Below are positions 4,440-43,448 of a stretch of 64,000 nucleotides of DNA, in pieces (position 1 is the stretch's first letter; each line of letters starts with the position of its first letter). The position numbers were made by a program, and so were the translations under genes. The notes beneath the pieces are model-generated. The model did no database searches and was not told the origin of the DNA. It worked only from the letters and a program-made list of their open reading frames with translations. This DNA comes from an uncultured Desulfohalobiaceae bacterium (GTDB lineage: Bacteria; Desulfobacterota; Desulfovibrionia; Desulfovibrionales; Desulfothermaceae). The stretch is from positions 1,190 to 65,189 of the forward strand of contig CAZNIP010000004.1 in the NCBI GenBank assembly GCA_964573115.1, given 5' to 3'.

Positions 4440-6254
4440 TCACTTGCCTCTCAGACGCACTGGGCACCCCTCCGCCTTTCCCTGTCTGAGCTTTCGGAGG
4501 CTCAGGGCGAAGTCGTCATACACGGGGTCGATGTACTGATCATGGCAGGCCAGGCAGGGGCCCGGCCTGAGAATGGCCTCGAGCTCGGCCCGGGTCCAGG
4601 GTCGCCGGTCTGGCCTGGAGGCTGTGTGCAGCCGGGTTCCGTTGAGGCTGCCAAAGGCCTCGGGCGGGACATCCAGGCCAAAACCAGACCTCCTTGAATC
4701 GTACAGGGGATCGAAAGAGACCCCTTCCGGGCCAGTGAGCAGGTGCCCCTCCCCCAGGCCCAGGGCCTTGGGGTCCAGATGGCATTCAGCGCAGGTCCTG
4801 GCCGAGGGCTGGGTGGTGTGGGGGTCAAAGGTGGTCATGGCCGGAATGGTCTTCGAGGCCTCGGGCTGATGCCGGCCCTGCCGGTCGAAGACCGAGACGA
4901 AGACCTGGCAGGGGGCAAAAGGAACCACCTCTGCCCCGTCCACCCCGAGAATCGGTTGGGTCAGGCGCATGTAGGAACGGCCCTCGTTCCAGTGCCCCCT
5001 GGTCTCCTGGCCGGACAGCTTGTCCAACTGGACCTCGTCCTTTCTGTATTCCAGGTGACAGCCGTAGCACTGGGGCATGAGCCTGCTGTGGCAGGCCTGG
5101 CAGCTGAGCCGTTCGTGGCCCGGCAGGTTGTGGTGGGGTTGGGACAGGTCAGTGGACTCCATGAAAATCGGCTTCCCGTCCAGCTTGCGGAACAGGACCG
5201 CCCGGCCGTCAATGGAGCGCAGGTGGTACAGGGGGGCGGATCGCGGAGAATAGGCGATCCTGGCCCCCTTGATCCCGGGCACGGCCCGGTTCAGGCCGGC
5301 CAGGGTCACAGCCAGGCCGTCCCCGGGCCGGACAGCCTCGAACTCCGGGGCATGGCACATCTCGCAGCTGATTTCGGTCTGCTCCTCCATATACTCATGG
5401 GTCTGCCCGTCGCCCATGATCTCCAGATGGGTATGGCAGTCGATGCAGGTCAGGCCCAGATCAAAGTGGACATCGGCCGGCCCCTGGATGAAGTAGCGCC
5501 CCCCTGAGAGCCTCCTGGTCCCAGGGGCCCCCCGCACGTAGGGTGTGCCGTACCCTTCCGACTCGAACCTGCCCTGATAGGACAGACCCTGCCTGGCTGA
5601 ACGGTTGTGACAGCGCAGGCAGTTGTCAGCCGGGACCCTGACCGAGAGCCGGGCATGATCGAAGGTCATCAGGGTCGGATCGTCCGCGGTGTCGCCTTTG
5701 CCGACCACATGGCAGGCCGAGCACCCCCCGCCCCGCTGGCCGATCTCCCCTTCACCTTCCCGGGGCTTCCAGAGGTGGCAGGAGGCGCACATCTTGGCGA
5801 ACTGATCCTCGGCCAGACTGAGCCTGGCCGGATCCTCGAGCATCCGGGGCACATCCCGGGGCGCGGCCGCAAGCTGGCCATCGGTTTCCCAGTGATAGGA
5901 GAGGGTGTTCAAAATACCCTTGTTCGTGGCCATGATCGACGACTTGACCCTGGGCACGATCTCAGGGTGGCACTCGGCGCGGCCGCAGGTTTGCCTGGCG
6001 AAGTGAAGGTCCCCGGGGTTGATGACCATCCCGGCGTGGGCCCTCTCCTTGTCCAGAGAGCTGGGATTGCCCAGGTGGCAGACCGCGCATCCCAGGGCCG
6101 AGACCGGGTGGGACGGGTCGGGGTCGCTGACCTCAGGGTGGCAGACCAGGCAACCCTCCTGGTAGGGCTCTTCGGGCCTGGGCCGGAGCATGTCCTGGAC
6201 CATGACCACCGCCCCCAGAAGGACGAAGCTCAGGAGCAGAAGGGACCCCTTCAC
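4440..6254 (-). CDS. periplasmic multihaem c-type cytochrome
   Basis: 604 aa with an N-terminal signal/TM segment. I counted 11 CxxCH motifs (CLVCH, CAVCH, CASCH, CSACH, CLRCH, CIDCH, CEMCH, CQACH, CYGCH, CAECH, CLACH) plus one CxxxxCH (CGRAECH). Confidence 0.9.
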   Translation of the reverse strand: MKGSLLLLSFVLLGAVVMVQDMLRPRPEEPYQEGCLVCHPEVSDPDPSHPVSALGCAVCHLGNPSSLDKERAHAGMVINPGDLHFARQTCGRAECHPEIVPRVKSSIMATNKGILNTLSYHWETDGQLAAAPRDVPRMLEDPARLSLAEDQFAKMCASCHLWKPREGEGEIGQRGGGCSACHVVGKGDTADDPTLMTFDHARLSVRVPADNCLRCHNRSARQGLSYQGRFESEGYGTPYVRGAPGTRRLSGGRYFIQGPADVHFDLGLTCIDCHTHLEIMGDGQTHEYMEEQTEISCEMCHAPEFEAVRPGDGLAVTLAGLNRAVPGIKGARIAYSPRSAPLYHLRSIDGRAVLFRKLDGKPIFMESTDLSQPHHNLPGHERLSCQACHSRLMPQCYGCHLEYRKDEVQLDKLSGQETRGHWNEGRSYMRLTQPILGVDGAEVVPFAPCQVFVSVFDRQGRHQPEASKTIPAMTTFDPHTTQPSARTCAECHLDPKALGLGEGHLLTGPEGVSFDPLYDSRRSGFGLDVPPEAFGSLNGTRLHTASRPDRRPWTRAELEAILRPGPCLACHDQYIDPVYDDFALSLRKLRQGKAEGCPVRLRGK

Positions 6255-6255
6255 G

Positions 6256-7158
6256 TCAAACCCCTCTCTGAAGGAGGACCAGACCGGTGAGCGCAGCGTA
6301 GACGCCCAGGGATCCCAAAAAGGTCAGCCTGGCAGCCTGCTCCGCCCTGCCCGACATCAAGGGCAGGCCAAGAAAGAGGGCTGCGGCGCAGGCCGGGAGC
6401 ACCACCCCGGCCCACAGCGGAGGCAGGTGCTTGAGCATCTCCTGGAGTCCGAGGAAGAACCAGGGCCCGGAGGCCTCATGAATCTCGGCCTCCGGAGGCA
6501 GAGCCAGGGGCATGGGAATCATGATGGCCCCCAGGGCGCAGACCAGGAGCGCCACAGTCATGTAACGGACTCGGGGGAGCCAGGACCGGATATGGTTCTT
6601 CAGCAGCACCAGGAGGAGAAGCGGCAGCAGCCAGCAGTGCCAGAGGTATGGCGGAAAAAAGAAGTCCTGGCCGCTCCCGATGAGGAGGCGGGCCAGAGTT
6701 TCCCCCGCCAGGGGGATGGAGCTGGAGAGATTCTGCAGGATGGTGCCGGCCAGGATCCCCTCCTTGTCCCCTTTGAGCACAAAGCCGGTGAACAGGAGAA
6801 GCAGGGCCAGGGCCGAAGCCAGCCAGAGACGGGCCCATTCAGTCAGGGAAACCACCCGGTGGTTGCGGCGCAGGAAGTGGTCCAGGACATGGAGCAGGGT
6901 CAGGACCACGCAGGCCTCTCCGGACAGGAAATGGAGCCTTCGAAAGAACCACCCGAAGGGGATGCGGGTGGTGATGCTCTCCACCCGGGCAAAGACATCC
7001 CCCCAGGGGTGAAACTGAAAGGCCAGAATGAGCCCGGACCCGAGACAGAAGATGCCTGTGGCCAGGGCCATGCGCGGCAGTACCGGGCTGATCCGCCTGT
7101 GATCCTTGATCAAGGCTGCTGCTTTGCCAAAGACAGAACGGGTATGAAATGTCATCAC
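6256..7158 (-). CDS. cytochrome b subunit (bc1/b6-type four-helix di-haem domain)
   Basis: 300 aa and polytopic. RRLHFLSGEACVVLTLLHVLDHF provides the helix B His pair, and WHCWLLPLLLLVLLKNH provides a second His pair 14 residues apart. It lies adjacent to the Rieske gene. Confidence 0.8.
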   Translation of the reverse strand: MMTFHTRSVFGKAAALIKDHRRISPVLPRMALATGIFCLGSGLILAFQFHPWGDVFARVESITTRIPFGWFFRRLHFLSGEACVVLTLLHVLDHFLRRNHRVVSLTEWARLWLASALALLLLFTGFVLKGDKEGILAGTILQNLSSSIPLAGETLARLLIGSGQDFFFPPYLWHCWLLPLLLLVLLKNHIRSWLPRVRYMTVALLVCALGAIMIPMPLALPPEAEIHEASGPWFFLGLQEMLKHLPPLWAGVVLPACAAALFLGLPLMSGRAEQAARLTFLGSLGVYAALTGLVLLQRGV

Positions 7159-7177
7159 AGGCGTTCAGATTTCGGGT

Positions 7178-7232
7178 GTCAGCCCTGCCTCTGGCCTGGG
7201 CTGACAGGTTCAGGGTTCAAGGTTGAGGAGGG
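7178..7232. repeat. intergenic hairpin (GCCTCTGGC apex) plus GGTTSA-type short repeats, inside the Rieske-cyt b spacer
   Basis: gtcagccctgcctctggcctgggctgac is followed by aggttcagggttcaaggttgaggagggg. The same architecture occurs at 21508-21566, 48268-48323 and 63470-63530. Confidence 0.8.
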
Positions 7233-7303
7233 GAAAGTTCCCGACGTGACCAGCAGGATCTCGACTCGGCCAGGTTGATCAGCCAAGAAACTTGACTCCA
7301 GAA

Positions 7304-7720
7304 TCAAGTTTCATACGAGCCCCTGACGGGCAGAATGACCTCCAGGTCACCACTGTCAAGCCTTTGCGATTCAAGGACGGCCAGATCGGACCTGGCCGGG
7401 CCCCTGAGGCGCTTGCCCTGCAGGTCGTAGGCGCTCCCGTGGCAGGGGCAGACAAACTCTTTTTCAGCCTCATTGAAGTGGACCCAGCATCCCAGGTGGG
7501 TGCACCTGGCGGACAGGGCCTGCAGGGATTCCCCCTTGGGAATCAGGATGGCCCCGTCCCGACTGGCGAAGGGAGACAGCTCCGGGGCGGGGAACACGAC
7601 CCGGCGGACGGTGCGCTCCTGCCAGGTGACAAAGCGCAGGATGGGCCAGCCCCAGAAAGCCAGCCCGGCAGCCCAGACGGTCGAGCCCAGGAGCCATTGC
7701 AGGAAGCGCTGCCTGGTCAT
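7304..7720 (-). CDS. Rieske [2Fe-2S] protein
   Basis: Carries CTHLGC...CPCHGS cluster-binding boxes. The N-terminus MTRQRFLQWLLGSTVWAAGLAF is Tat-like and hydrophobic. ATG 7720 overlaps the upstream stop (ATGA at 7717-7720). The longer track ORF reaching 8089 is rejected. Confidence 0.9.
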   Translation of the reverse strand: MTRQRFLQWLLGSTVWAAGLAFWGWPILRFVTWQERTVRRVVFPAPELSPFASRDGAILIPKGESLQALSARCTHLGCWVHFNEAEKEFVCPCHGSAYDLQGKRLRGPARSDLAVLESQRLDSGDLEVILPVRGSYET

Positions 7721-9597
7721 GAGTCGTCTTCCCTCTGCTGCAAGCGGTTCGAACGGGCTCGCGGGACCTGTTCGGCGGCCAGGCCTTTCGAACCCGGGGT
7801 CTGCTTCAGGCCGGGGCCCAGGGACTCCAGGAGGCCTTGCTTCTGTTTGAAAAACCTTTGTCCGTATCCGGAGCCGGGTTCCAGGAGCCGATCCCGTTCC
7901 CGGGGGTTCAAAAGCCGCATCCCGGGCACGGCCGGGGGGCTGGGGCGCAGCAGATCGAAATCCGGCCCGGCCTCGAGCTCCCCGTCCCAGGCCAGGCCAA
8001 GCCCCGCTGCAACGGGGTTCCGATGGCAGGTTTCGCAGGGCCGGCCCTGACTGCCGGTGGTGTGGGGAACAGAAGGCATGAAGGCCCATCCAGGGGCTTG
8101 CCCGTCGCCCCGAACGGGGATCTCGCTGTCCAGGAGCACCCTGCCTGCTCGATCCACATAGGAGACCTGATACTGGTGCAGAGGCCTCATCAGGCTGATG
8201 CGATTCTGATGGTCAACTCCCAGGACCCTGTTTTCCCACCTCCTGAACCGGTAGCCTTTGAGCCACAGCCCTGTCGTTGTTTCTCCAGTGAGGAGGTCCC
8301 GGGAGGTCGGTGAACCTTCCGGATCTGCCAGGAGCCTGTTCAGTTCGGTCAACAGCCCGGGGTCGCCCTGTCTGGTCAGGTACGTCCAGACGCGAAAATC
8401 CCCGCCGTCCTGTCGCTGCAGGCTCAACCCGTAGTCATGGCCGATCCACCTGGCATGGCAGCTGCTGCAGCGCAGCCGTGAATGGACTGCGGGGTCGTGA
8501 GAGGGGCTCGTGGCACGGAAAATCGGCAGCAGCCTGTTCCTGCCCTGGCGGTCCTGGAAAGACCATGTTCCGTTCCGGTTCTGGAGACCCTCCACCTCGG
8601 GGTTCGGTCCGGCGTCGGAGAACCCGCCGTGGCAGTCCTGGCAGGTTGTACCCGGACTGTCCAGGGCAAAGGCGGCTCGGTGCCCATCCCCCATGACATC
8701 CTGCTTGTGGTGGCAGTCCAGGCAGCTCATGCCCCTTTCCTGATGGACGTCCCTGGCCAGGACATGAAAGGCCCCCTGCGGCATGTCGCGGACCGGGACC
8801 TCCCCCAAAACGGCTTCCTGGAAAAAGGAGTCGTAGTCCCGCTCAAACAGGCCGTGGCCATCCGAGCCAATGGAGTTGGGGCGATGGCACTTCAGGCATT
8901 GGGCGTCAGGAATGTCGGCTGTCAGGCCATGAACCCTGGGGTGGCCCGCGCTGGAGCGGTCGATGGACTGGTCGTTCCCGCGATAGCGGCCGTCAGCCGC
9001 ATACGGCACGTGGCAGGCGGCGCAACCCCTGGCCCTGTAGGGCGGGTTCCCTGCAGCACCCACCGCACTGACGTGGCACTGCAGACACTTGCGCCGCAGG
9101 AGGTCGTCCACCAGGTCCTCGGGTTCTGCCGGGTCTGGAGGACTGTGCGGAAGGGGCTCGAGGGCCCCTCCGGCCCCGTAAACAGCGGGGACAGCCGAGG
9201 CCTGGGCCCCGAAAAGGAACCTGGTCTGGTTGATCATTCCAGCCAGGGTGAGGTGCAGGCTGGTCTGAAACGTCTCCACGTCGTCCTGGTGGCACTGGCC
9301 GCAGACCTGTTCGGCCGAGGCCATCCGCGAAGGGTTTTCAAGGATCGGCGAATGATCGTCCAGCGGCCGGCCGCGATCCTGGCGAAGGAGATGGCAGACC
9401 GGGCAGCCGAAAGTGTGTCCGGAGCCTGGGGATTCGACACCTCGATGGCAGGACAGGCAATCCTGAAAGTCGTGCTCCGGGCTCTTCAGACAGCCTGTCC
9501 CGGCGGCGAGAAGGGTCAGGAGCAGAAGCCCTGCCCGAATGACACCTGATTGGAGAACGGTCTCACACCTCCACGACGAATCGTTCCGTTTCCTCAT
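7717..9597 (-). CDS. multihaem c-type cytochrome, probable lipoprotein
   Basis: 626 aa with an LLAAGTGC lipobox-like signal. It has 10 CxxCH motifs (CLSCH, CPVCH, CGQCH, CLQCH, CAACH, CLKCH, CLDCH, CQDCH, CSSCH, CETCH). It shares blocks with 4440-6254, for example DCH(H/T)..(D/E)(V/I)MGDG. Confidence 0.9.
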   Translation of the reverse strand: MRKRNDSSWRCETVLQSGVIRAGLLLLTLLAAGTGCLKSPEHDFQDCLSCHRGVESPGSGHTFGCPVCHLLRQDRGRPLDDHSPILENPSRMASAEQVCGQCHQDDVETFQTSLHLTLAGMINQTRFLFGAQASAVPAVYGAGGALEPLPHSPPDPAEPEDLVDDLLRRKCLQCHVSAVGAAGNPPYRARGCAACHVPYAADGRYRGNDQSIDRSSAGHPRVHGLTADIPDAQCLKCHRPNSIGSDGHGLFERDYDSFFQEAVLGEVPVRDMPQGAFHVLARDVHQERGMSCLDCHHKQDVMGDGHRAAFALDSPGTTCQDCHGGFSDAGPNPEVEGLQNRNGTWSFQDRQGRNRLLPIFRATSPSHDPAVHSRLRCSSCHARWIGHDYGLSLQRQDGGDFRVWTYLTRQGDPGLLTELNRLLADPEGSPTSRDLLTGETTTGLWLKGYRFRRWENRVLGVDHQNRISLMRPLHQYQVSYVDRAGRVLLDSEIPVRGDGQAPGWAFMPSVPHTTGSQGRPCETCHRNPVAAGLGLAWDGELEAGPDFDLLRPSPPAVPGMRLLNPRERDRLLEPGSGYGQRFFKQKQGLLESLGPGLKQTPGSKGLAAEQVPRARSNRLQQREDDS

Positions 9598-10759
9598 TCC
9601 AGGTCACCAGCACGTACCAGATCGCCATGAGCAGGGACACGGCCACGATGGTCCCCTGATAGCCGAGAATGTCAGGGAGGAAAACTTCGAAGCCCACAAT
9701 CCGCTGCATCAGCTCGGAAGCATCGATCCAGGCACGGACCAGGGAGTTGGACAGAGCAAAGAAGACCAGGGCGAGCATGAGCTTGACCTGACCCTCAACG
9801 GCCCGCCAGGCCGTCCCGCTGCCGCAGCCGCCGGTGACGAGCATCCCGAAACCGAAGATGAAGCCGCCGATGAGGGCCCCGAACCCGAAGTTGGCCGTCA
9901 CGTACGTGGTTTCCATTCTCAGGCCGACCCACTTCAGGGTGGCGAACCCGAGCATGCTGATCAGAATGCTGACGATGACCGTCCTGGTGACCTCTCCGTC
10001 GCCAGTCATGAACGGCTCCCTGAAGCAGCGGGCAAAGCAGAGCCTGGACCGGTGCAGGACAAAGCCGAAGCCCAGGCCGCAAAGCAGCAGGCCGCCAACG
10101 AAGATGTACCCGTAAAACGTGTACACCTCGGAGGCGATGAAGGCCAGGACGATGAGCGCCGCCCCAATCCAGGGCTGGATTCTCTTCCAGTTGAAGCGTG
10201 ACTGCTTGAGCCTCGGGATGTCGGTTTTCCCGCTCCCAAGAGTGATGTTTTCCATTTCCCAGTACAGGTATTTCAACCCTGCCCAGGCACCGAGCATGAG
10301 CCCGGCCATCATCACGAAGCCGCTCAGGGACAGGGCGCTGATGGCGGTGTAGAACCCACCGACATTGCACCCCCCCGCCAGGGCGGCCCCTGTTCCGAGG
10401 AGCAGTCCCCCCACCACCGCCTTGATGCCCTCCAGAAGGGGCGGGACGCGAATGGCGAACTGACCTGCCAGGAGAGCGGCCGCCAGGGCTCCGACCATCA
10501 GGCCGAGCGTCAGAATGGAGTTCGTGGAGACCAGGGCTGAATAGGGCTGCTCTGCATACATTCCCAGGCTGTAAAAGAACCAGTCCGCCCAGTTGCGCAG
10601 TCCGCCGACAACCCCCCAGGGCCTGTCCCAGGCAAAAGTGATCACGGAGAGGATCCCCACCAGGACCCCGCCGGTCATCATGGGCCACGGCTGGACAAAG
10701 ACCTTGTCCCAGGCCTGCTTGACCACCTTGATGAAGACGCTTGTGTTCTGGCTCATCAT
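9563..10759 (-). CDS. YeeE/YedE-family membrane protein (thiosulfate/sulfur-compound transporter-like)
   Basis: 398 aa and polytopic. Two family-typical Cys loops are present, LAGGCNVGGF and VTGGCGSGTAW. Confidence 0.85.
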   Translation of the reverse strand: MMSQNTSVFIKVVKQAWDKVFVQPWPMMTGGVLVGILSVITFAWDRPWGVVGGLRNWADWFFYSLGMYAEQPYSALVSTNSILTLGLMVGALAAALLAGQFAIRVPPLLEGIKAVVGGLLLGTGAALAGGCNVGGFYTAISALSLSGFVMMAGLMLGAWAGLKYLYWEMENITLGSGKTDIPRLKQSRFNWKRIQPWIGAALIVLAFIASEVYTFYGYIFVGGLLLCGLGFGFVLHRSRLCFARCFREPFMTGDGEVTRTVIVSILISMLGFATLKWVGLRMETTYVTANFGFGALIGGFIFGFGMLVTGGCGSGTAWRAVEGQVKLMLALVFFALSNSLVRAWIDASELMQRIVGFEVFLPDILGYQGTIVAVSLLMAIWYVLVTWNEETERFVVEV

Positions 10760-10771
10760 GCACTCCTTTCC

Positions 10772-12448
10772 TCAGCAGCCCTCGTCTTCTTTTGAAAACA
10801 GCCCGGTCGCCTGTCCTCCGGGTTCAGTGACCGGGACGTCAGGTGCGCCAATGCAGCTTGGGTCGTCTTCAGCGCGATCAGCCAGGGCGAAGACCACGGC
10901 CATGTCGTAGGAGCGCCAGGCCAGCTTCGAGGTCGGGTCGGCCAGAATGGCTTTCCAGAAGAGCTTCTTGGCTTCCTGGTACCTTCGGCGTTCAAAGGCT
11001 GTCTGACCGTGACGGATCATCCTGGCGCAGAGCTCCGAATCCGGGGTGGAGACCTCGATGTCGGTTTCGGCCAGGGTTTCCAGGTCAGCTGTGTCCCCGG
11101 CAAGCTCCACAGTGGTTCCCAGGTAGACCTGCTTGCCCACGATATCGATGTTGTCGTTGTAAAAGCGGGCATCATGCCCGGCCTTCTTGAGCATGTTGTA
11201 GGCCATTTCAGCCCGCATGCCGGTGGCACAGTGGGCGACGATCTCCTTGTTTTCGGGAAGCTCGTTTTGGCGCATCTGAAGCTCGTCCAGAGGAATGTTC
11301 ACGGATGGCGGCAGGGAACCGGCAGCCACTTCATTCGGGGACCGAACATCGAGGATCAGGATGTCTTCGGGGTTCTCCTCAATGATTCTGGCGAACTCAC
11401 CTGTGGAGATCTCTCCCGGCAGAGGCTGGGGTGCGTACGCGATCTTCGACACTGGTGCGCCCTGCTTGACCTCCCTTCCGGAGTCAGCCCAGCCCTGATA
11501 GCCGTCTTCGAGGATCGAGACGTTTTTGTAGCCCCAGGAGCGGATGGTGGTGACAGCAGGCTTGAGCCGATTCAGGTCAGTGGCTGTGGAATAGAGGATG
11601 ATCGGGGCTTCCCGGTCCAGGGGGAACCCGCTTTTCCGGTCAGCAATGTCCTCCAGAGGGATGGACACCGCATCAGGGATGTAGCCCTGACCTGCCTGCC
11701 TGGTATCGATGAGCACGTAGTTGCCTCTCCTCTTCGTCAGGTAGGTCCCGGTGGTCAGGAGGACATTCCCCTTCTTTTTCCACCCCGGGGCGCCGTCGTG
11801 GTAGACTTTCACCCTGGTGTAGCCCCACTGCTCGGCCATCTGGGAGGCCATCGGGCTCAGTGTGCAGTGGTTCCCGCCGCAGTAGAAAACGAGGAGCACA
11901 TCTTTGCTGTCCGGGAGTTCGGAGCGCATGGTGTGCATGGAGCTGAAGGGGATGGACACGGAGGTGGGGATGTGGGCTTCATGAAAGCGAAGCCCGGGTC
12001 TGGAGTCCACGAGCAGGTAAGGCTCCCCAGATTCGCCGGCCACGAGGCGTTCGACGTCTTCTGTGGTGGCCAGCTGCTCTCTGGGAATTTCAATGGGAGG
12101 CATGGTCCAGATTTCATCTGCCAGCAGATCCTCGGTTTGCTGCCGGAGCCTGATTTTGATGGGCACCTTCGGGGCCAGCTCAGCAGCCAGGTTCAGCGTC
12201 GTGGCCTGGTCATACTTGACCATGTGGGTTTCTGGACCCACCTTGACCTGGATGGTTCTGGCCTTTTGGGACCGTTTGACGAAGCTTCCGGCAATAACCC
12301 CCTGTTCCTGCTTGTACTCTCCATGACAGCGCAGACACTGCTTGGACACCATGCTCTGCACCGGACGTTCAGCCCCAGTCGCCGCAAGGCTTGTGACGAT
12401 GAGCAGGCTGGCAACGAGCGGGACACCGATTTTGAATGGCTGATGCAT
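10772..12448 (-). CDS. exported monohaem cytochrome c fused to three rhodanese domains and a C-terminal TPR-like segment
   Basis: Has a signal peptide (MHQPFKIGVPLVASLLIVTSLAATGA) and one CLRCH motif. Rhodanese loops are YCGGNHCTLSP (Cys), YSTATD (no Cys) and AHCATGMRAEM (Cys). I chose ATG 12448, preceded by GGAGG, over the track start at 12481. Confidence 0.85.
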   Translation of the reverse strand: MHQPFKIGVPLVASLLIVTSLAATGAERPVQSMVSKQCLRCHGEYKQEQGVIAGSFVKRSQKARTIQVKVGPETHMVKYDQATTLNLAAELAPKVPIKIRLRQQTEDLLADEIWTMPPIEIPREQLATTEDVERLVAGESGEPYLLVDSRPGLRFHEAHIPTSVSIPFSSMHTMRSELPDSKDVLLVFYCGGNHCTLSPMASQMAEQWGYTRVKVYHDGAPGWKKKGNVLLTTGTYLTKRRGNYVLIDTRQAGQGYIPDAVSIPLEDIADRKSGFPLDREAPIILYSTATDLNRLKPAVTTIRSWGYKNVSILEDGYQGWADSGREVKQGAPVSKIAYAPQPLPGEISTGEFARIIEENPEDILILDVRSPNEVAAGSLPPSVNIPLDELQMRQNELPENKEIVAHCATGMRAEMAYNMLKKAGHDARFYNDNIDIVGKQVYLGTTVELAGDTADLETLAETDIEVSTPDSELCARMIRHGQTAFERRRYQEAKKLFWKAILADPTSKLAWRSYDMAVVFALADRAEDDPSCIGAPDVPVTEPGGQATGLFSKEDEGC

Positions 12449-12496
12449 GTCTTTGACCTCCGGCCTTGGTGTGCTCAACACGTCATTCAGGAATGA

Positions 12497-21728: not shown

Positions 21729-21893
21729 TGGCAGCTTTAAGCATAGGGCTATAGAAAGCTTTAATCCATTTTTGTCTATTTAAATCAAATAGATATGTTT
21801 CAACTTTGCCAGAGGCAAAGCTGAAACATGACTGCATCAATCTCAATTCAATGATTCCATGCTGCCGGCGGCAGCACAGTGAGGGAGGACCAT

Positions 21894-22103
21894 ATGGGCA
21901 TCAACAGGCTTCTGCGCGGCATTGCCGGATTTTTTATCCTGCTCAGCCTCGTTCTGGCGGTCTTCTTTTCGATGTGGTGGCTGCTGTTCACCGCTTTTGT
22001 CGGGGCAAACCTTCTCCAGTCGGCCTTCACCGAGTGGTGCCCGATGATGACTTTTCTGGAAAAAATCGGGTTTCGCAAAGAGGTTCCTGCTCCGAAACAG
22101 TGA
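21894..22103 (+). CDS. DUF2892 (YgaP C-terminal-like) small membrane protein
   Basis: MGINRLLRGIAGFFILLSLVLAVFFSMWWLLFTAFVGANLLQSAFTEWCPMMTFL has two TM helices and a conserved C-terminal Cys-Pro. A GAGGGAGG RBS precedes ATG 21894. Confidence 0.7.
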   Translation: MGINRLLRGIAGFFILLSLVLAVFFSMWWLLFTAFVGANLLQSAFTEWCPMMTFLEKIGFRKEVPAPKQ

Positions 22104-22313
22104 GAACGTTCATGGTAACGTTCCTCAGCGTTCCTCTGGAATCTTGGTAACGGTATGGAGGCCTTTTCTCCCTCTAAGGCCGCAAGGCCCAAAGACCCCG
22201 GCAGGCGTGACGTCTGCCGGGGTCTTCCAGTCCTGGCACTCTCTTTGCTTCCATACGAGAGCGTATCGGCAGGACAACGGACAGCCCATGAACATCAATA
22301 CAGGAGAGGATCT

Positions 22314-22628
22314 ATGACCAAGCAAGAGATTTCACAGGAACTCGAAGAGGCCATCAGCAGCGGGGTGGCCCTGCTCGACTTCAGCGCCTCCTGGTGCGGC
22401 CCGTGCAAGGCCCAGGAGCCGATCATCGAGCATCTGACCCAGAGCTATGACGGTCAGGCGGTGGTCAAAAAGGTCGACATTGACGAGCACAGGGACTTTG
22501 CCGTCAGAATGGGCATCCAGAGCGTGCCCACCCTGGTCCTGTTCAAAGACGGCCAGGAGGAGCAGCGGTTCATCGGGATGCAGAACAAGACGGTCCTGCA
22601 AAAGGCTTTGGATGCTGCCCTGAACTGA
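22314..22628 (+). CDS. trxA: thioredoxin
   Basis: SASWCGPCKAQEP contains the WCGPC active site. 104 aa, with an AGGAGAGG RBS. The track ORF start at 22155 is rejected. Confidence 0.9.
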   Translation: MTKQEISQELEEAISSGVALLDFSASWCGPCKAQEPIIEHLTQSYDGQAVVKKVDIDEHRDFAVRMGIQSVPTLVLFKDGQEEQRFIGMQNKTVLQKALDAALN

Positions 22629-22877
22629 AAAAAAACCGTGGCTCGAGCACCCAGCGGCCGCTCTTCATTCCTCTCTGCGCAGCAGATCTCGCTTGACGAG
22701 GTGAAGCCGGCCGCTGGACACTCGAGCACCCTTGTATGAAACTCAACTCCTGGTAAAGACCAGCCCAGAGTCATCAACAGAGGGAAATCATTTCTATCCT
22801 TTGAAATCATAAAGATATGTGTCAGCCCTGCCAGAAGCAGGGCTGACACACGAACAACATCACCCAAAGGATCAACT

Positions 22878-24434
22878 ATGTGGAAGCTCCTCTCGACCAT
22901 CAGCAAGCACCTGACCATCGCCATTCCGGTGATGATGGTCCTGGGGTTCGTCTTCGGGGTCATGGTGGACGCTGCGCCGCTCAAAAGCCTGATCATTCCC
23001 TTCACCTTCCTCATGGTCTACCCCATGATGGTCAACCTGAAGATCAAGAAGGTTTTTGAAGGCGGTGATCTCAAGGCCCAGCTCCTGACGCAGATCATCA
23101 ACTTCGGGATCGTGCCTTTTGTCGCCTTTGGCCTGGGCGTGCTCTTCTTCAGGGACAGCCCCTACATGGCCCTGGGCATGCTCCTGGCAGGCCTGGTGCC
23201 CACCAGTGGGATGACCATTTCCTGGACGGGCTTTGCCAAGGGCAACATGGCCTCGGCCGTGAAGATGACCGTGATCGGGCTGACCCTGGGGTCCCTGGCC
23301 ACCCCGTTCTATGTCCAGGCCTTGATGGGGGCCAGCCTGGAGGTCAATGTCCTGGCGGTCATGAAGCAGATCGTGATCATCGTCTTCATCCCCATGCTGG
23401 CCGGATTCATCACTCAGCAGGGGCTGATCAAGCGCTACGGCCAGAAGGGGTTTCAGCAGGAATGGGCCCCGAAATTCCCGGCCCTGTCCACCCTCGGCGT
23501 CGTGGGCATCGTCTTCATCGCCATGGCCCTGAAGGCCAAGCCCATCGCCGGGTCGCCCCAGATGCTCCTCTACATCCTGGCGCCCCTGCTCATCATTTAC
23601 GCTTTCAACTATGCCCTGAGCAGCTTCGTCGGGAAACGGCTTCTCCCCAGAGGGGACGCCATAGCCCTGGTGTACGGGTCGGTGATGCGCAACCTGTCCA
23701 TCGCCCTGGCCATCGCCATCAACGCCTTTGGCCCGGAAGGCTCAAGCGCCGCCCTGGTCATCGCCATCGCCTACATCGTCCAGGTCCAGTCCGCGGCCTG
23801 GTACGTCAAGTTTTCCGATGCCATCTTCGGACCGGCCCCTGCGCCAGAAGCGGTGGCGGAAAAGCCAGCCCCAGCCCCGGAAGCGGAAGAGGTTCTGGAG
23901 GAGGTCACATCAGAGCCGGAGTTCAGGAAGATCCTCTATGTCACCGACCTGTCCAGGAGCGCCAGGCATGCAGGTCAATACGCCTGCAGCCTCGGCGTCA
24001 AGTACGACGGCCAGGTCACGGTCATGCATGTCATCCCGGATGTCCTGGAGGAGTTCTCGGAGACTGCCGGGATCGACATCTCTGATCGCGTGGACCAGAG
24101 GACCTGGAAAGAGTTCAACGAGTTCGGAATAGAAAAGGCCCAGGAAGACATCCGCAAGCGGATCGAAACCACCGCCAGGCAGGTCACCCAGCGAATGCCC
24201 TACTGCCCCATGACCCCGAACAACATCAGGGTCGAAGTCGGCGACCCTGTTGACAAGATCGTTTCTGTGGCCAGGGAGGAGGGCTTTGACCTGATCATCC
24301 TGGGCACGCACGGCCATGGAGCCTTTCAGGAAGCCTTCGTGGGCGGCGTGGCCCATGGCGTGATCCGCAAGAGTCCGGTTCCAGTTCTTTCGGTCAAGCT
24401 GCCGGATGGCGACCATGAACAAGCCAGCATTTGA
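22878..24434 (+). CDS. bile-acid/arsenite (BART/ACR3-like) family permease fused to a C-terminal universal stress protein (UspA) domain
   Basis: The first ~330 aa are polytopic and SBF/ACR3-like (…LAGLVPTSGMTISWTGFAKGN…). A PAPAPEAVAEKPAPAPEAEE linker follows. The Usp domain reads RKILYVTDLSRSARHAG...DLIILGTHGHGAFQEAFVGGVAHGVIRKSPVPVL. Confidence 0.8.
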   Translation: MWKLLSTISKHLTIAIPVMMVLGFVFGVMVDAAPLKSLIIPFTFLMVYPMMVNLKIKKVFEGGDLKAQLLTQIINFGIVPFVAFGLGVLFFRDSPYMALGMLLAGLVPTSGMTISWTGFAKGNMASAVKMTVIGLTLGSLATPFYVQALMGASLEVNVLAVMKQIVIIVFIPMLAGFITQQGLIKRYGQKGFQQEWAPKFPALSTLGVVGIVFIAMALKAKPIAGSPQMLLYILAPLLIIYAFNYALSSFVGKRLLPRGDAIALVYGSVMRNLSIALAIAINAFGPEGSSAALVIAIAYIVQVQSAAWYVKFSDAIFGPAPAPEAVAEKPAPAPEAEEVLEEVTSEPEFRKILYVTDLSRSARHAGQYACSLGVKYDGQVTVMHVIPDVLEEFSETAGIDISDRVDQRTWKEFNEFGIEKAQEDIRKRIETTARQVTQRMPYCPMTPNNIRVEVGDPVDKIVSVAREEGFDLIILGTHGHGAFQEAFVGGVAHGVIRKSPVPVLSVKLPDGDHEQASI

Positions 24435-24447
24435 ATGAGGAGGAGAT

Positions 24448-24861
24448 ATGCGATCCACGACCCTCTATGCCACTGAAACCGCAAAGCCCCTGTCCGAGTT
24501 TCTCCAGGGCCTGAACAGGGCCGCAGAAGAAAAGGGTTTTGTCATTCACAACGAAGACAAGATGGAGATGAGCCACACCTTCGGCCGGCACGGCATTGAG
24601 GTGGCCGAGGGCTTTGACCTGCACATGATCCAGGTCTGCAAGCCGGAAAAAGCTGCGGCCAGCCTGAGCACCAACCCGGAACGGGCCGCCCTGATGCCGA
24701 AATTCATCACCACCTTCAGTCACAACGGCACGCTTCAGATCAGGATGCTGGTTTACGGTCAGGACATGATCGAAGACCTCATCGGTGATGCCGACTTTGC
24801 CCACTCTGTCCAGGCCTCGTATCAAGCCATCATTGAGATCATCGAAAAGGCCAGGTCCTGA
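24448..24861 (+). CDS. DUF302 domain protein
   Basis: 137 aa. ...FVIHNEDKMEMSHTFGRHGIEVAEGFDLHMIQVCKPEKAAASL...ALMPKFITTF fits the DUF302 pattern. The call is by recollection, not by search. Confidence 0.65.
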   Translation: MRSTTLYATETAKPLSEFLQGLNRAAEEKGFVIHNEDKMEMSHTFGRHGIEVAEGFDLHMIQVCKPEKAAASLSTNPERAALMPKFITTFSHNGTLQIRMLVYGQDMIEDLIGDADFAHSVQASYQAIIEIIEKARS

Positions 24862-24909: not shown

Positions 24910-25129
24910 TTTCAACCCTGGGTCATCAGTCCGGCCAGAGGCTGTGCTGATGGCCGAATTCGCGCGGCATCTCCTGAGTCGTTGCAGCCGCATCATGCCT
25001 GCCGGATGATGAAAAAAATATTGTCTCCTGTCTGGATTTGCTCTACAAATATGGATTGACCCCATCTTTGGTCAGATGTTCCTCAAGAGGGGGGACCAGA
25101 GACAACTGTGCCGCCAGGAGACGAACCCC

Positions 25130-25558
25130 ATGAAAGACACCCTTGAATCGCTTGTTTCTCAAATCCAGGAAGATATTGACCAGAAGACCCTTGAGGACTA
25201 TGGATCCGATTTTTTTCAGCGCTGGAGGGATCCACAGTTCATGGGCAGAATGGAGACCCCGACCGTTTCAGCCGCATTGACAGGCAGCTGCGGCGATCGA
25301 ATCGAGATCGAGCTCAAGATAGACAACGAGACCATCACCCATGCCCAGTTCTTCACCACCGGGTGCGGTCCGAGCATCGCCTGCGCCAACACGGCCTGCG
25401 AGCTGGCCATGAACAAGGACCTCGAAGAGGCGGCCGGGCTTGAAGGCCAGGATATCCTCAAGGTGCTGAAAACCGTGCCTGAGGACAAGGAGCACTGCGC
25501 CCACCTCGCTGCCCAGACCCTCAGGGAGGCCATCCGCAACTACTGGGCCCGGCATTGA
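25130..25558 (+). CDS. NifU N-terminal/IscU-like Fe-S scaffold protein
   Basis: The three scaffold Cys are present in GSCGDRIEIELKI, FFTTGCGPSIACA and EHCAHLAAQTLREAI. A CAGGAG RBS precedes ATG 25130. Confidence 0.8.
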   Translation: MKDTLESLVSQIQEDIDQKTLEDYGSDFFQRWRDPQFMGRMETPTVSAALTGSCGDRIEIELKIDNETITHAQFFTTGCGPSIACANTACELAMNKDLEEAAGLEGQDILKVLKTVPEDKEHCAHLAAQTLREAIRNYWARH

Positions 25559-25724: not shown

Positions 25725-25905
25725 TTTCCTCAATAAGAAACGGCTCAGGCATTGTTGCCATGCATCCACCACGAGACACTGTCAGGAGGTGATTATGGAA
25801 GAAGAGATCGATCTTGGTTGCGCCAGGCCATCTGGAGGACCAGTCGGTGATGCACCACCCACAGAAACCACAACAGAGCCGAACGTTGCTCAGGAGGTAC
25901 CGCAG

Positions 25906-26517
25906 ATGATCAAGGTTGGCCAGAAAGCCCCGGATTTCACTGCCCCGGCGTTTTATCAGGGCAAGTTTGTGAACACGACCCTGTCTGAATGTCTGGGCAA
26001 GTGGACCCTGCTCTGTTTCTACCCAGGGGACTTCACCTTTGTCTGAGCAACAGAGCTGGCGGCAGTTGCCTCCAAAATCGAGACCTTCAACAGTCTCGGC
26101 GTCCAGGTCATGTCCATGAGCGTTGACAGCGTCTTTGTGCACAAGATGTGGGTGGATCACGAACTGTCCAAAATGGTCCCTGGAGGGATTCCTTTCCCCA
26201 TGCTCTCCGACGCTGCCGGACGGGTGGGCACCACCTACGGCATCTACGATGAGCAGGCCGGGGTCGAGACCAGAGGGCGATTCATCATCGACCCTGACGG
26301 GGTTGTTCAGGGCTATGAAGTCCTCACCCCCCCGGTGGGACGCAACGTGAACGAGTCCATCCGCCAGATTCAGGCCTTCCAGAAAGTCAGGGAGTCCAAG
26401 GGCACTGAAGCCACGCCGTCGGGATGGAGGCCCGGAAAGCAGACCCTGAAACCGGGCCCGGATCTCGTGGGCAAAGTCTGGGAAGTCTGGAAAGTCGACG
26501 AGGCTTTTCAGGATTGA
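25906..26517 (+). CDS. AhpC/Prx-type peroxiredoxin with in-frame TGA (26044-26046) at the peroxidatic Cys position, so a probable selenocysteine protein
   Basis: Track ORFs 25789-26046 and 26110-26517 are in the same frame. Reading through the TGA gives MIKVGQKAPDFTAPAFYQGKF...FYPGDFTFV-U-ATELAAVASKIETFNSLGVQVMSMSVDSVFVHKMW...GTEATPSGWRPGKQTLKPG. This is colinear with typical 2-Cys Prx (DFTFVCPTE ... EVCPAGWKPG). An AGGAGG RBS precedes ATG 25906, and an alternative upstream start at 25795 also has AGGAGG. Confidence 0.75.
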
Positions 26518-26531
26518 TTCGATGCGCCAGG

Positions 26532-26567
26532 GGGATTGAGCCGACATGAGGGCATGGGCTCAATCCC
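26532..26567. terminator. hairpin between convergent peroxiredoxin and methyltransferase genes
   Basis: GGGATTGAGCC-gacatgagggcatg-GGCTCAATCCC forms an 11-bp stem. Confidence 0.6.
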
Positions 26568-39855: not shown

Positions 39856-40536
39856 ATGATTGTCGCCAAGAGAAAGCCCTTTGATGAAATCAAGACATCC
39901 GTCGACGAGTACGCAAAGATTCTGACCGTGGGATGCGGCACCTGCGTGGCCGTATGCCTGGCTGGCGGCGAAAAGGAAGTGGCCAACCTGAACGCCGAGC
40001 TTGAAATGGCCAGAAAGATCGCCAAGAAGCCGGTTGAGCTGGGGGCCAAAACGGTTGAGCGTCAGTGCGACATGGAGTTCCTGGCAGAGCTCGATTCCAT
40101 GGTCAGCGACTACGATGCCCTGATTTCCCTGGCCTGCGGGGTCGGGGTTCAGTTCCTGGCCGAACGATACCCGCATATTCCTGTCTTTCCCGGTGTGGAC
40201 ACCACCTTCATGGGCGCCAACCGGGATGTCGGCTGGTACGAAGAGCGGTGCCGCGGCTGCGGGACATGCGTCCTGGCCTACACCGCCGGCATCTGTCCGG
40301 TGACCACCTGCGCCAAGGGACTGTTCAACGGCCCCTGCGGCGGGACCAATGCCGGAAGTTGCGAGGTCGACCCCTCCCAGCCCTGTGCCTGGTACAACAT
40401 CTACCATCGACTGGCGCAGCAGGGTCGGCTGGACAACATCATGACGGTCTTCCCGGCCACGGAGTGGCGGAATCAGATCCCCAGAACCGTGATCCAGCCC
40501 GGCTACGAACAGAAAGTCACGAGTGAAAAAGCCTAG
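39856..40536 (+). CDS. methylenetetrahydrofolate-reductase C-terminal-domain (MetV-like) Cys-rich protein
   Basis: Carries GCGTCVAVCLAGG, RCRGCGTCVLAYTAGICPV and the hallmark LFNGPCGG. An AGGAGGA RBS is present. Confidence 0.75.
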   Translation: MIVAKRKPFDEIKTSVDEYAKILTVGCGTCVAVCLAGGEKEVANLNAELEMARKIAKKPVELGAKTVERQCDMEFLAELDSMVSDYDALISLACGVGVQFLAERYPHIPVFPGVDTTFMGANRDVGWYEERCRGCGTCVLAYTAGICPVTTCAKGLFNGPCGGTNAGSCEVDPSQPCAWYNIYHRLAQQGRLDNIMTVFPATEWRNQIPRTVIQPGYEQKVTSEKA

Positions 40537-40566
40537 CGCCCTACCCCAAACATAAGGAGCTCCCAA

Positions 40567-41802
40567 TTGAAGAGCAAAAGTGTCATCATCATCGGCGGTG
40601 GCATTGCCGGTCTGACTGCTGCATGGGAACTGGCCCAGCAGGATGTGGGTGTGCATCTCGTTGAGAAGGGTCATTTCCTGGGAGGTCATGCCATTCACTA
40701 CAACTGCAAGGCCACAGACGTGTGTCAGCAATGCGATGCCTGCACAGTGGAGAAAATGCTCAAAAACGTGGTCTCCGAACCTCGCATCACTGTGCATCTG
40801 GCCTCGAACGTTCAGAGCATCTCAAAGAACACAGGCTTCGCAGTCACCTTGGACAAGAGGGCCCAGTACGCCTCTCCCCGGGAGCAGGAGCACCTGTCGG
40901 CAGCCTATGCCCGCTGCCCTGTCCCTGGAGCCATTCTGCGGGGAAGGTCCATCAACAACTCCCCCCTGTTCGCCCTGGATGAAAGCCTGCTTCCGCAGCT
41001 CAAGGACCAGCTCCCGGACCTCTTCGGACCGGACGGGCTGGATGCGAACAAAGAACCAGCTCAGGAAACCCTCAAGGCCGACGCCGTCATCCTGGCCACA
41101 GGGTTTGAACCATTCCACCCTGAAGACAAACCCACCTACAACTCGGCCTCTCTGAAGAACGTGGTTTCCGCCCTGGACATGGAAAAGATCAAGAAGGAGC
41201 AGGGACACTACGTTCGCCCTTCCGACGGACGGCCTCCGCACAGAGTGGCCTTTATTCAGTGCGTCGGCAGCAGGAATGAGCAGCTCGGACACCTGTGGTG
41301 CTCCCACGTCTGCTGCCCCTACGCCCTGCGCATGGCCGAGGTGATGAAGAAAGACGATTCAGAGACAGACATCACGGTCTTTTACATGGATATTCAAAAC
41401 ATCGGCAGGGACCATCCGTCGTTTTACCAGCAATGCCAGTCAGACTTCCGTTTCGTGCGGAACATCCCGGTGGACATCTACCCCGGGGAGAACGACTCCA
41501 TGCTGGTCAGCTACATGGATGAGAGCGACGAAAAGGTCATCCGCGACCCTTTCGATCTCGTGGTCCTCTCGGTGGGGATCATGCCTGGACAGGACAATGC
41601 CCGGCTGGCCGAAATGGCCGACATTTCCCTGACACCCAATGGGTTCCTTCAGTCCGCAAGCGAGCTTGACACCACCTCCACCGCCGTGGAGGGCATCTTT
41701 GCTGCCGGGACGGCCACAGGGCCAAAGAGCATTGCCGAGAGCATGGTCAATGCCGGGCAGGCCGTGCGCAATACGGTCAAACACTTAGGGGTATCCAAAT
41801 GA
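40567..41802 (+). CDS. HdrA-like FAD-dependent oxidoreductase
   Basis: TTG start 7 nt after AAGGAG. VIIIGGGIAGLTAAWELAQ is the dinucleotide fold. It also has VCQQCDAC, and QCVGSRNEQLGHLWCSHVCC is typical of the HdrA Fe-S region. Confidence 0.75.
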   Translation: MKSKSVIIIGGGIAGLTAAWELAQQDVGVHLVEKGHFLGGHAIHYNCKATDVCQQCDACTVEKMLKNVVSEPRITVHLASNVQSISKNTGFAVTLDKRAQYASPREQEHLSAAYARCPVPGAILRGRSINNSPLFALDESLLPQLKDQLPDLFGPDGLDANKEPAQETLKADAVILATGFEPFHPEDKPTYNSASLKNVVSALDMEKIKKEQGHYVRPSDGRPPHRVAFIQCVGSRNEQLGHLWCSHVCCPYALRMAEVMKKDDSETDITVFYMDIQNIGRDHPSFYQQCQSDFRFVRNIPVDIYPGENDSMLVSYMDESDEKVIRDPFDLVVLSVGIMPGQDNARLAEMADISLTPNGFLQSASELDTTSTAVEGIFAAGTATGPKSIAESMVNAGQAVRNTVKHLGVSK

Positions 41803-43448
41803 CTGACATGCAGACGATCCCAACGATGGAAACTGACGTGAACACCCGTGTCCTGGTCATCGGCGGAGCCTGGTCAGGGGCCCGGACTGCCGCCGAGCTG
41901 GTGGATCAAGGATACGGCGTGACCCTGGTCGAAGAGGCCCCGACGCTGGCCAAGGCCAGGGAAGCTTCGAGTTTTTATTCCCGGCTCGTTCCCGATCGGG
42001 ACACGCCACTTCTGGAGACGGTCCAAAAGGTCGAAGACATGGACCACATCGAGCTTCTGACCTCAGCCAGCCTCCTCCATGTGGACGGCCTGCCAGGGAA
42101 TTTCCGGGTCAAGCTCAATGTCGGCGGGCAGATCAAGGACCTCGATGTCGGAGCCGTGGTCGTGGCCACGGATATTGAAGCCAGGCCTGCCTTCGAGACC
42201 TACGGACTGACCCCTGGGGACAAGGTCGTTGGCCTGAGCGAGCTGGAGAGCACCTTGCAGTCCAGGCCGCCGCAGGACGCCAAAGTCGCTTTCCTGGCCG
42301 GGTTCTGCGATGACGGCTCGCCACTGTCCATGGAAAGGATCATGCGCTCGGCCCTGCAGGTCCAGGAAGGTGGGTCCCAGGCTTATGTCTATGTCAGAAA
42401 CATCAAGGTGGCAGCCGAGGGACTGGAAAAACTCTACAAGACAACCCGGGACAAGGGCGTGCTCTACTTCAAGCTCCAGGACAAGCCGGAGCTGGACGGG
42501 GACGGCTCGAGCCTGGTCTTCCTGGATCCGGTCCTGTCCCAGCAGGTTGAGCTCAAACCCGACCTGATGGTGGTCGAGGATCAGCTCGCAGCCAACCATC
42601 TCAACCAGCGTCTGGCCGAGCTCCTGCGCATCGACCTCGGCCCCGGAAACTTCATCCAGGAAAACAACGTGCACCGTTTCCCTGTCCACTCCAACAGGGA
42701 AGGCATCTTTGTGGCCGGAGGCAGCCGGGATGCGCTCAGCCTCCCGGACACGCTGGCCGATGTCGGGAACGTGGCTCTGGAAGTGGCCCGATTCCTGAAC
42801 GACGGGCACAAGAGCGTGCCCGAGCACATGGGCATCGTGGACCGGGAAAAATGCTGCTTCTGTCTGACCTGCTACCGCTGCTGCCCCCACGGTGCCATCA
42901 CCTGGGAAGACAAGCCGGTCATCTCCTCCATCGCCTGTCAGGGATGCGGCATCTGCGCCAGTGAATGCCCTCAGGACGCCATTCAGATCGTGTCCTTTGA
43001 AGACGACACCATCAAGCAGGCCATCAAGGCCCACCTGGCCGCTCAGGCCGAAAGTCCGACCATTATCGCCTTCTGCTGCGAGAACTCGTCCCTGGAGGCC
43101 GGGCACATGGCCCAGACCTTCAATCGACCGCTACCGGCCGGGCTGAAGATGATCAAAATCCCCTGCGCCGGCAAGGTCGACCTGGACTACATCTTCACCG
43201 CCTTCCTCAACGGCGCTGACGGCGTCATGGTTCTGAGCTGCCATCCGGGCAACTGCAAGTCGGTCCGGGGCAACACCTTTGCCAGCTGGCGGGTGGACAA
43301 CGCCTATCGCATGCTGGACAATGCCGGAATGAACCACAGCAGGCTCCTGACCGCCAGTCTGGCTTCGAACATGGATGTCGAGTTCTCTGAGCTGGCCACC
43401 CGGATGGAAGCCAGCCTGAACGAGCTCGGACCTTCCCCTCTGAAGTAA
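41799..43448 (+). CDS. HdrA-like flavoprotein / 2x[4Fe-4S] ferredoxin / MvhD(FlpD) fusion protein
   Basis: ATGA overlap with the upstream gene. It carries VLVIGGAWSGARTAAELV, CCFCLTCYRCCPHGAI and CQGCGICASECPQDAI. The C-terminal IIAFCCENSS...IKIPCAGKVD...MVLSCHPGNC is an MvhD-type domain. Confidence 0.8.
   Translation: MTDMQTIPTMETDVNTRVLVIGGAWSGARTAAELVDQGYGVTLVEEAPTLAKAREASSFYSRLVPDRDTPLLETVQKVEDMDHIELLTSASLLHVDGLPGNFRVKLNVGGQIKDLDVGAVVVATDIEARPAFETYGLTPGDKVVGLSELESTLQSRPPQDAKVAFLAGFCDDGSPLSMERIMRSALQVQEGGSQAYVYVRNIKVAAEGLEKLYKTTRDKGVLYFKLQDKPELDGDGSSLVFLDPVLSQQVELKPDLMVVEDQLAANHLNQRLAELLRIDLGPGNFIQENNVHRFPVHSNREGIFVAGGSRDALSLPDTLADVGNVALEVARFLNDGHKSVPEHMGIVDREKCCFCLTCYRCCPHGAITWEDKPVISSIACQGCGICASECPQDAIQIVSFEDDTIKQAIKAHLAAQAESPTIIAFCCENSSLEAGHMAQTFNRPLPAGLKMIKIPCAGKVDLDYIFTAFLNGADGVMVLSCHPGNCKSVRGNTFASWRVDNAYRMLDNAGMNHSRLLTASLASNMDVEFSELATRMEASLNELGPSPLK

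Follow-up and report, generated by a model that had tools for sequence, protein, structure and literature searches.

The stretch of DNA analysed here, which is 64 kb long and is called the window below, carries on its forward strand an open reading frame (ORF) for a Prx1/AhpC-type peroxiredoxin that is interrupted only once, by an in-frame TGA (positions 26044-26046) at the peroxidatic position (PGDFTFV-TGA-ATE). Read from the ATG at 25906, the frame runs MIKVGQKAPDF...LLCFYPGDFTFV-TGA-ATELAAVASK... and continues for 156 codons to a stop codon, TGA 26515-26517. The truncated product from this start would be 46 aa long, so that a selenocysteine (Sec) at the internal TGA would be residue 47 of the short form. 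No stop codon intervenes between this start and another in-frame ATG farther upstream, at 25795, which yields a long form of 240 codons (25795-26517, + strand) including Sec84. The preliminary description of this DNA reported two same-frame ORFs split by a single TGA at a peroxiredoxin active site (DFTFV-TGA-ATEL), and both the sequence and a Pfam match extending across the TGA bear this out. In the source assembly, the gene is annotated as two AhpC-TSA fragments of 83 aa and 133-135 aa. Before and after the TGA, the ORF is intact, and its codon-position GC bias is normal.

Several features of the active site can be placed on the sequence. The peroxidatic motif P-G-D-F-T-F-V-U (PxxxTxxU; 26023-26046, + strand) ends in the TGA, and a Cys codon (TGT, 26014-26016, + strand) that is invariant in the alignment of homologs lies ten residues before the Sec position, in LLCFYPGDFTFVU. 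Farther downstream, the alignment to human Prx2 places a Thr codon (ACG, 26413-26415, + strand) at the site of the resolving Cys, where EATPSGW replaces EVCPAGW, just as the preliminary description had read it. A perfect 11-bp inverted repeat (GGGATTGAGCC...GGCTCAATCCC; 26532-26567) is located just past the stop codon, before a convergent methyltransferase gene. This repeat resembles a terminator hairpin without a T-run and was not called by the terminator scan; it is probably a bidirectional terminator hairpin lacking a T-run between the two convergent genes.

We identify the locus, very probably, as prxU, which encodes a peroxiredoxin of the Prx1/AhpC fold with Sec as its peroxidatic residue, the UGA being recoded by means of a hairpin at 26057-26074. 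The gene is an ordinary ortholog of the already known, curated selenoprotein family PrxU and does not represent a new family. The NCBIfam equivalog model NF040737 (peroxi_PrxU) matched the protein with a score of 402 bits (cutoff, 270 bits), aligning residues 8-235 to profile positions 3-232 of 233, whereas the next best model, AhpC TIGR03137, scored 180 bits, below its own cutoff of 272. When Cys was substituted for the stop, Pfam AhpC-TSA matched residues 4-135, a segment that includes the TGA position (E=9e-35); a match to the C-terminal Prx domain, PF10417, was obtained as well. At the sequence level, human Prx2 was matched with an E-value of 1e-43, and the closest solved structures are of the typical Prx1/AhpC type. 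An AlphaFold model of a Cys-form homolog superimposed on Prx1/AhpC structures with a target-normalised TM-score of ~0.9 at 38-46% identity.

Conservation and reading of the in-frame TGA

Relatives were collected by scanning GTDB with each species represented by one genome, which yielded 591; the best 80 of these 591, together with other fetched loci and the window, made up a set of 86. In these closest loci, TGA occupies the identical codon in 86 of 86, spread over more than 10 phyla. The lineages represented include Desulfobacterales, Syntrophales, Nitrospirota, Spirochaetota, Calditrichota and Cloacimonadota, as well as Acidobacteria, Planctomycetes, Chloroflexi and others. Amino acid identity with the homologs (60-80%) runs through the whole part downstream of the TGA, and purifying selection is seen on both sides of it.

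These data bear directly on the possibility that the locus is a pseudogene, in which a nonsense mutation killed an ordinary Cys-peroxiredoxin and left the 83-aa and 133-135-aa fragments as non-functional remnants. The annotation of two separate fragments in the source assembly would agree with such an event, as would the lack of Sec machinery in the 64-kb window. However, the universal conservation of the TGA and the high identity that continues downstream of it exclude a pseudogene for practical purposes. Furthermore, RNA-level covariation is present directly downstream of the TGA (see the next section). A random nonsense mutation would produce none of these three features. We therefore regard a pseudogene as extremely improbable.

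The protein databases give a different picture of the same site. A database search returned thousands of homologs, and most of the closest carry Trp at the position of the TGA; among the 118 homologs for which the residue was tallied, there are 105 with W, 11 with C, one with G (P0033) and one with S (P0089). Taken at face value, the large number of W entries suggests decoding of the TGA as a standard amino acid, be it under genetic code 4 or 25 (Trp or Gly) or by near-cognate readthrough. Two of the W entries were checked at the DNA level, and the codon is TGA in both (L001:384-386 and L002:1803-1805), which indicates that the catalytic-site W is an artefact of applying a TGA-sense code in gene calling on short contigs. 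In the window, moreover, TGA is an ordinary stop codon that terminates 41 of the 53 confidently coding genes, and a recoded genetic code is thereby excluded. The host lineages (Desulfobacterales, Nitrospirota, Spirochaetota and others) are standard-code organisms, a Trp at the catalytic site would abolish peroxidase chemistry, and Cys forms exist at this site; the W entries are best explained by code switching of the gene callers. The probability that a standard amino acid is inserted here is, in our estimation, minute.

As judged from sequence comparison, the TGA at 26044-26046 is almost certainly a real Sec codon, and we infer that Sec is actually inserted in this organism. The preliminary description had likewise preferred Sec to a pseudogene; the conservation of the TGA, the selection on both sides, the covarying SECIS hairpin and the membership of the curated PrxU family all uphold this preference. 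Recognition of prxU has a practical value, because it corrects the two-fragment AhpC annotation of the source assembly; in the public databases, many PrxU entries contain a catalytic-site Trp that originates from a TGA called as sense.

The hairpin downstream of the UGA

A SECIS-type hairpin lies downstream of the UGA, at 26057-26074 (+ strand). It consists of a 5' arm, UGGCGGC (26057-26063), a loop, AGUU (26064-26067), and a 3' arm, GCCUCCA (26068-26074). Six of the seven pairs form in the window, and C26060 and U26071 are mismatched (C-U). RNA folding, which the preliminary description had proposed as a check, places the hairpin in the minimum-free-energy structure of the window, its single-sequence thermodynamics being unexceptional (z = -0.8 to -1.4), and Rfam gave no match in the window at its gathering thresholds.

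When 82 distinct sequences were aligned without gaps in codon register, a clean, covariation-backed SECIS consensus for the family emerged: the 5' arm starts 10 nt after the UGA, the stem comprises 7 bp, and the loop reads (A/G)GU(U/C) in all 82 sequences. Across this alignment, pairing holds in 98.4% of the cells; compensatory changes occur in three pairs, and 62 cells have been altered on both sides. None of 500 shuffles reached the observed values, and sliding the partner by 1-3 columns lowered the pairing to 41-69%. Columns 21 and 30, which represent the wobble bases of a Ser and an Ala codon, are occupied by GC in 47 sequences, AU in 27, UA in seven and GU in one, and are unpaired in none. 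Most of the covarying columns are third codon positions at which changes are synonymous, indicating that selection has acted at the level of the RNA and not of the protein. The window has its own variation on this theme: two U-A pairs have been converted to G-C with accompanying amino acid changes (Ser to Ala and Glu to Ser), and the pairing has been kept.

The geometry of the hairpin also agrees with what has been described for bacterial SECIS elements. With 17 nt between the UGA and its loop, the hairpin falls within the published range of 16-37 nt for the distance to the apical loop (PMC10778597). Bacterial SECIS loops are also described as small and as including a G (PMC1088965), and this applies here too, with the caveat that the loop G and U at the same time open a Val codon, so that their invariance is confounded with that of the codon. 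A comparison with Cys-containing homologs, likewise proposed in the preliminary description, showed Cys at the same site and a hairpin that is degraded or has lost its loop GU. Three of the Cys forms (n=4 only) retain 4-5 of the 7 pairs, and the fourth has an intact stem without the loop GU. The Val codon that gives rise to the loop GU is invariant in the Sec forms and is replaced by Leu or Ile in two of the four Cys forms. As far as the sequences of the four examined can speak, the degraded hairpin or lost GU is the expected negative control.

Two other hairpins had been put forward earlier as SECIS candidates, and both exist in the window. The first, GCAAC-N13-GUUGC (26047-26069), is not the conserved element: although 89.8% of its cells pair, this value is high because four of the five pairs fall in invariant, amino-acid-constrained columns, and the only variable pair fails to form in 40 of the 82 sequences. 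It also competes with the conserved hairpin. The second, CGAGAC-N8-GUCUCG (26079-26098), is window-specific and was dropped, only 33.7% of its cells being paired in the orthologs, no better than in shuffles.

A further explanation accepts a true prxU with an intact SECIS but supposes that the Sec machinery has been lost, or that no selenium is available, and that only the truncated peptide is made. The single mismatch in the hairpin and the HdrA-MvhD fusion of the window, which is an uninterrupted Cys form, are in keeping with such a relic. On the other hand, the compensatory changes specific to the window lineage (two U-A to G-C) preserve the hairpin, and the reading frame is intact with its normal coding bias on either side of the TGA. 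The preserved hairpin and the intact ORF point to ongoing selection for Sec decoding, and we consider a relic very improbable. Under the reading that we favour, in which the UGA is decoded as Sec, prxU probably marks this organism as a Sec decoder.

Two start codons and the N-terminal tail

The preliminary description placed the start of the gene at the ATG at 25906-25908 (+ strand). This codon is conserved as ATG in 82 of 85 distinct orthologs and has its own Shine-Dalgarno sequence, an AGGAGG located within the long ORF (25892-25897, + strand) 8 nt before the ATG; translation from it would give a 203-aa short isoform with Sec47. The gene model was nevertheless incomplete, because a second start lies upstream at 25795. 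It is preceded at a distance of 5 nt by another AGGAGG (25784-25789, + strand), and a Shine-Dalgarno-like core is present at this place in 77 of 82 distinct orthologs. Most homologs have the same extension, being about 238 aa long and not 203 aa. The 37 residues added by the upstream start open with MEEEIDLGCARPSGGPVGD and include the tail motif GCARPSGGPVGD (25816-25851, + strand), in which the invariant Cys9 is encoded by TGC (25819-25821).

The tail has the signature of a coding sequence. In its motif, GCARPTGGPVGE in 82 distinct orthologs, codon positions 1 and 2 are nearly invariant, and position 3 has an entropy of ~1.9 bits. The upstream ATG stands at a fixed distance of seven codons before the motif in 76 of the 82 orthologs, and the linker between the tail and the core varies in length without ever breaking the frame. 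This codon-position pattern, the fixed spacing of the ATG, the Shine-Dalgarno core and the unbroken frame indicate that the tail is translated and under protein-level selection. All 96 aligned homologs retain the tail Cys, even those with divergent motifs, such as GCQIP and GCAKP. In the AlphaFold model of the Cys-form homolog, the core is predicted with a pLDDT of >90, the linker is disordered (<50), and the tail motif reaches 60-66 with short beta-bridges.

The internal start shows a comparable signature of its own. AGGAGG precedes the internal ATG in 67 of the 86 loci, and a GGAG-type core is found in 85 of them, mostly 8 nt upstream. At the internal Shine-Dalgarno site, 72% of the Lys/Glu codons end in G, as compared with 41% elsewhere in the same genes (p=1e-20), and this excess suggests that the internal Shine-Dalgarno sequence itself is under selection. 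It is therefore likely that two isoforms, of 240 and 203 aa, arise from two starts, each with its own conserved Shine-Dalgarno sequence, both starts presumably being used. Two AT-rich lineages are truly tail-less and start only at the internal Met, one with a Sec form (L092) and the other with a Cys form (L093). Most simply, the 203-aa core with Sec47 would be the complete ancestral enzyme, to which an upstream start was added later in most lineages while the old one was kept.

Redox chemistry, genomic context and relation to known systems

At the site of the resolving Cys, Thr is found in 104 and Ala in 12 of the 118 homologs. Since the canonical C-terminal resolving Cys is absent, the enzyme does not follow the typical 2-Cys Prx mechanism, though it has the Prx1/AhpC fold. 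The preliminary description had named it a '1-Sec peroxiredoxin'. This label is correct with regard to the missing C-terminal Cys, but, with two invariant cysteines still present, the one-residue mechanism that it implies is only putative. These cysteines are the tail Cys9 and Cys74, the latter lying ten residues before Sec in strand beta3, and both are conserved in 96 of 96 aligned homologs. The Cys at -10 is present in 116 of the 118 database homologs and is kept in the tail-less forms. The existence of the tail-less orthologs means that the tail Cys is dispensable for the chemistry of the core enzyme. Both cysteines are candidate redox partners of Sec.

We envisage the following course of events. 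The hairpin at 26057-26074 would recruit SelB-GTP-Sec-tRNA(Sec), and the UGA at 26044-26046 would be recoded during translation, with Sec inserted in place of termination. The selenolate in the PxxxTxxU pocket would then reduce the peroxide and be converted to a selenenic acid, for whose resolution either a thioredoxin-type reductant, acting directly, or the tail Cys may be responsible, and thioredoxin would regenerate the enzyme; the reductant and the role of the tail Cys are presumptive in this scheme. A more specific arrangement can be proposed only tentatively and is, on balance, unlikely: in most lineages, prxU would be expressed as a mixture of the 203-aa core and the 240-aa form, and the latter would use the Cys of its flexible tail as a tethered resolving or relay thiol that forms a selenenylsulfide with Sec, thereby replacing the C-terminal resolving Cys. 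We found no description of such a two-isoform, tail-Cys-resolving arrangement of prxU in the literature searched. The two-start layout and the invariant tail Cys are the sole elements of the locus that might merit follow-up, and they offer a modest lead on how a Sec-peroxiredoxin without a canonical resolving Cys is recycled.

Components of the Sec machinery were searched for in the surroundings of prxU. None of the 30 Pfam-annotated genes of the 64-kb window is selA, selB or selD, and ARAGORN detected no tRNA in the window, including tRNA-Sec (selC), nor any beside prxU in 60 related loci. A scan of the window for TGA-interrupted genes identified no second selenoprotein gene, the hits being only adjacent gene pairs without two-sided coding bias. 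In Desulfoferula mesophila, a gene with AIRS and AIRS_C domains (L087:6061-6723) is located ~2.3 kb downstream of a Cys-form prxU. The AIRS family contains SelD and also ThiL, PurM and HypE.

Upstream of prxU, a run of redox and stress genes (21879-24861, + strand) encodes a YgaP-like membrane protein, a thioredoxin, an SBF-family transporter fused to a universal stress protein domain, and a DUF302 protein. The thioredoxin (22155-22628) is 157 aa long with an N-terminal extension and lies 3.3 kb upstream of prxU. A thioredoxin gene is present within 6 kb of prxU in three of about 85 loci, and this neighbourhood is not conserved. Directly upstream of prxU is an IscU/NifU_N-like gene (25076-25558, + strand; 160 aa, Pfam E=3e-24). 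Of about 85 loci, 12 from several lineages have a homolog of it no more than 6 kb from prxU, in some cases as the adjacent gene; a functional link between the IscU/NifU-like protein and prxU is possible, if weak.

Two further gene groups were noted in the window. A three-gene cluster at 39856-43448 (+ strand) encodes a MetF-C-terminal-like protein (DUF5981), an HdrA-like flavoprotein (411 aa) and an HdrA-like/ferredoxin/MvhD (FlpD) fusion protein (549 aa). The ORFs of the flavoprotein and the MvhD fusion overlap by ATGA, and both are uninterrupted Cys forms. The HdrA-like and MvhD (FlpD) families are often selenoproteins in Deltaproteobacteria. On the opposite strand, at 4440-12481, two large multiheme cytochrome c genes (604 and 626 aa) adjoin a gene for a 569-aa protein with three rhodanese domains, which suggests an extracytoplasmic sulfur or metal redox module.

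The hairpin of the window can be compared with the SECIS of Escherichia coli fdhF, which has a GGUC loop whose G and U contact SelB. Both are hairpins within the ORF, just 3' of the UGA, and both have a small apical loop with G and U. The window element, known here from its sequence, differs in its shorter, 7-bp stem and in having no conserved bulged U in the alignment.

With typical 2-Cys peroxiredoxins, such as human Prx2 and Salmonella AhpC, the protein shares the fold and the active-site loop-helix DFTFV(C/U)xTE. In contrast to these enzymes, it has Sec in place of the peroxidatic Cys and Thr in place of the C-terminal resolving Cys; in addition, an extra invariant Cys is present at -10, and most PrxU members carry the N-terminal Cys tail.

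A Sec-containing peroxiredoxin has been known since 2001 from Eubacterium acidaminophilum (Sohling et al. 2001, cited in PMC13188914 and PMC1794560). In the former, a review published in 2026, that work forms the experimental basis of the selenoprotein family 'Peroxiredoxin (Prx), TxxU', and the PxxxTxxU motif of Sec-peroxiredoxins is described in the same article (PMC13188914). According to the counts of Zhang et al. (2006), the family is present in many Deltaproteobacteria and Clostridia (PMC1794560). The genome of Desulfococcus multivorans, which contains selA, selB and selD, has prxU annotated in two parts, dmul_C20060/70 (PMC5109826).

The protein of the window and PrxU of E. acidaminophilum have in common a peroxidatic Sec in PxxxTxxU, the lack of a C-terminal resolving Cys, and a SECIS within the ORF directly after the UGA. 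The E. acidaminophilum protein is reportedly 203 aa long with Sec at position 47, like the short isoform of the window. There is no essential difference between the two, except that the window copy and most of its clade possess the extra upstream in-frame start, and the 37-residue tail with its invariant Cys is already part of the NCBIfam model NF040737.
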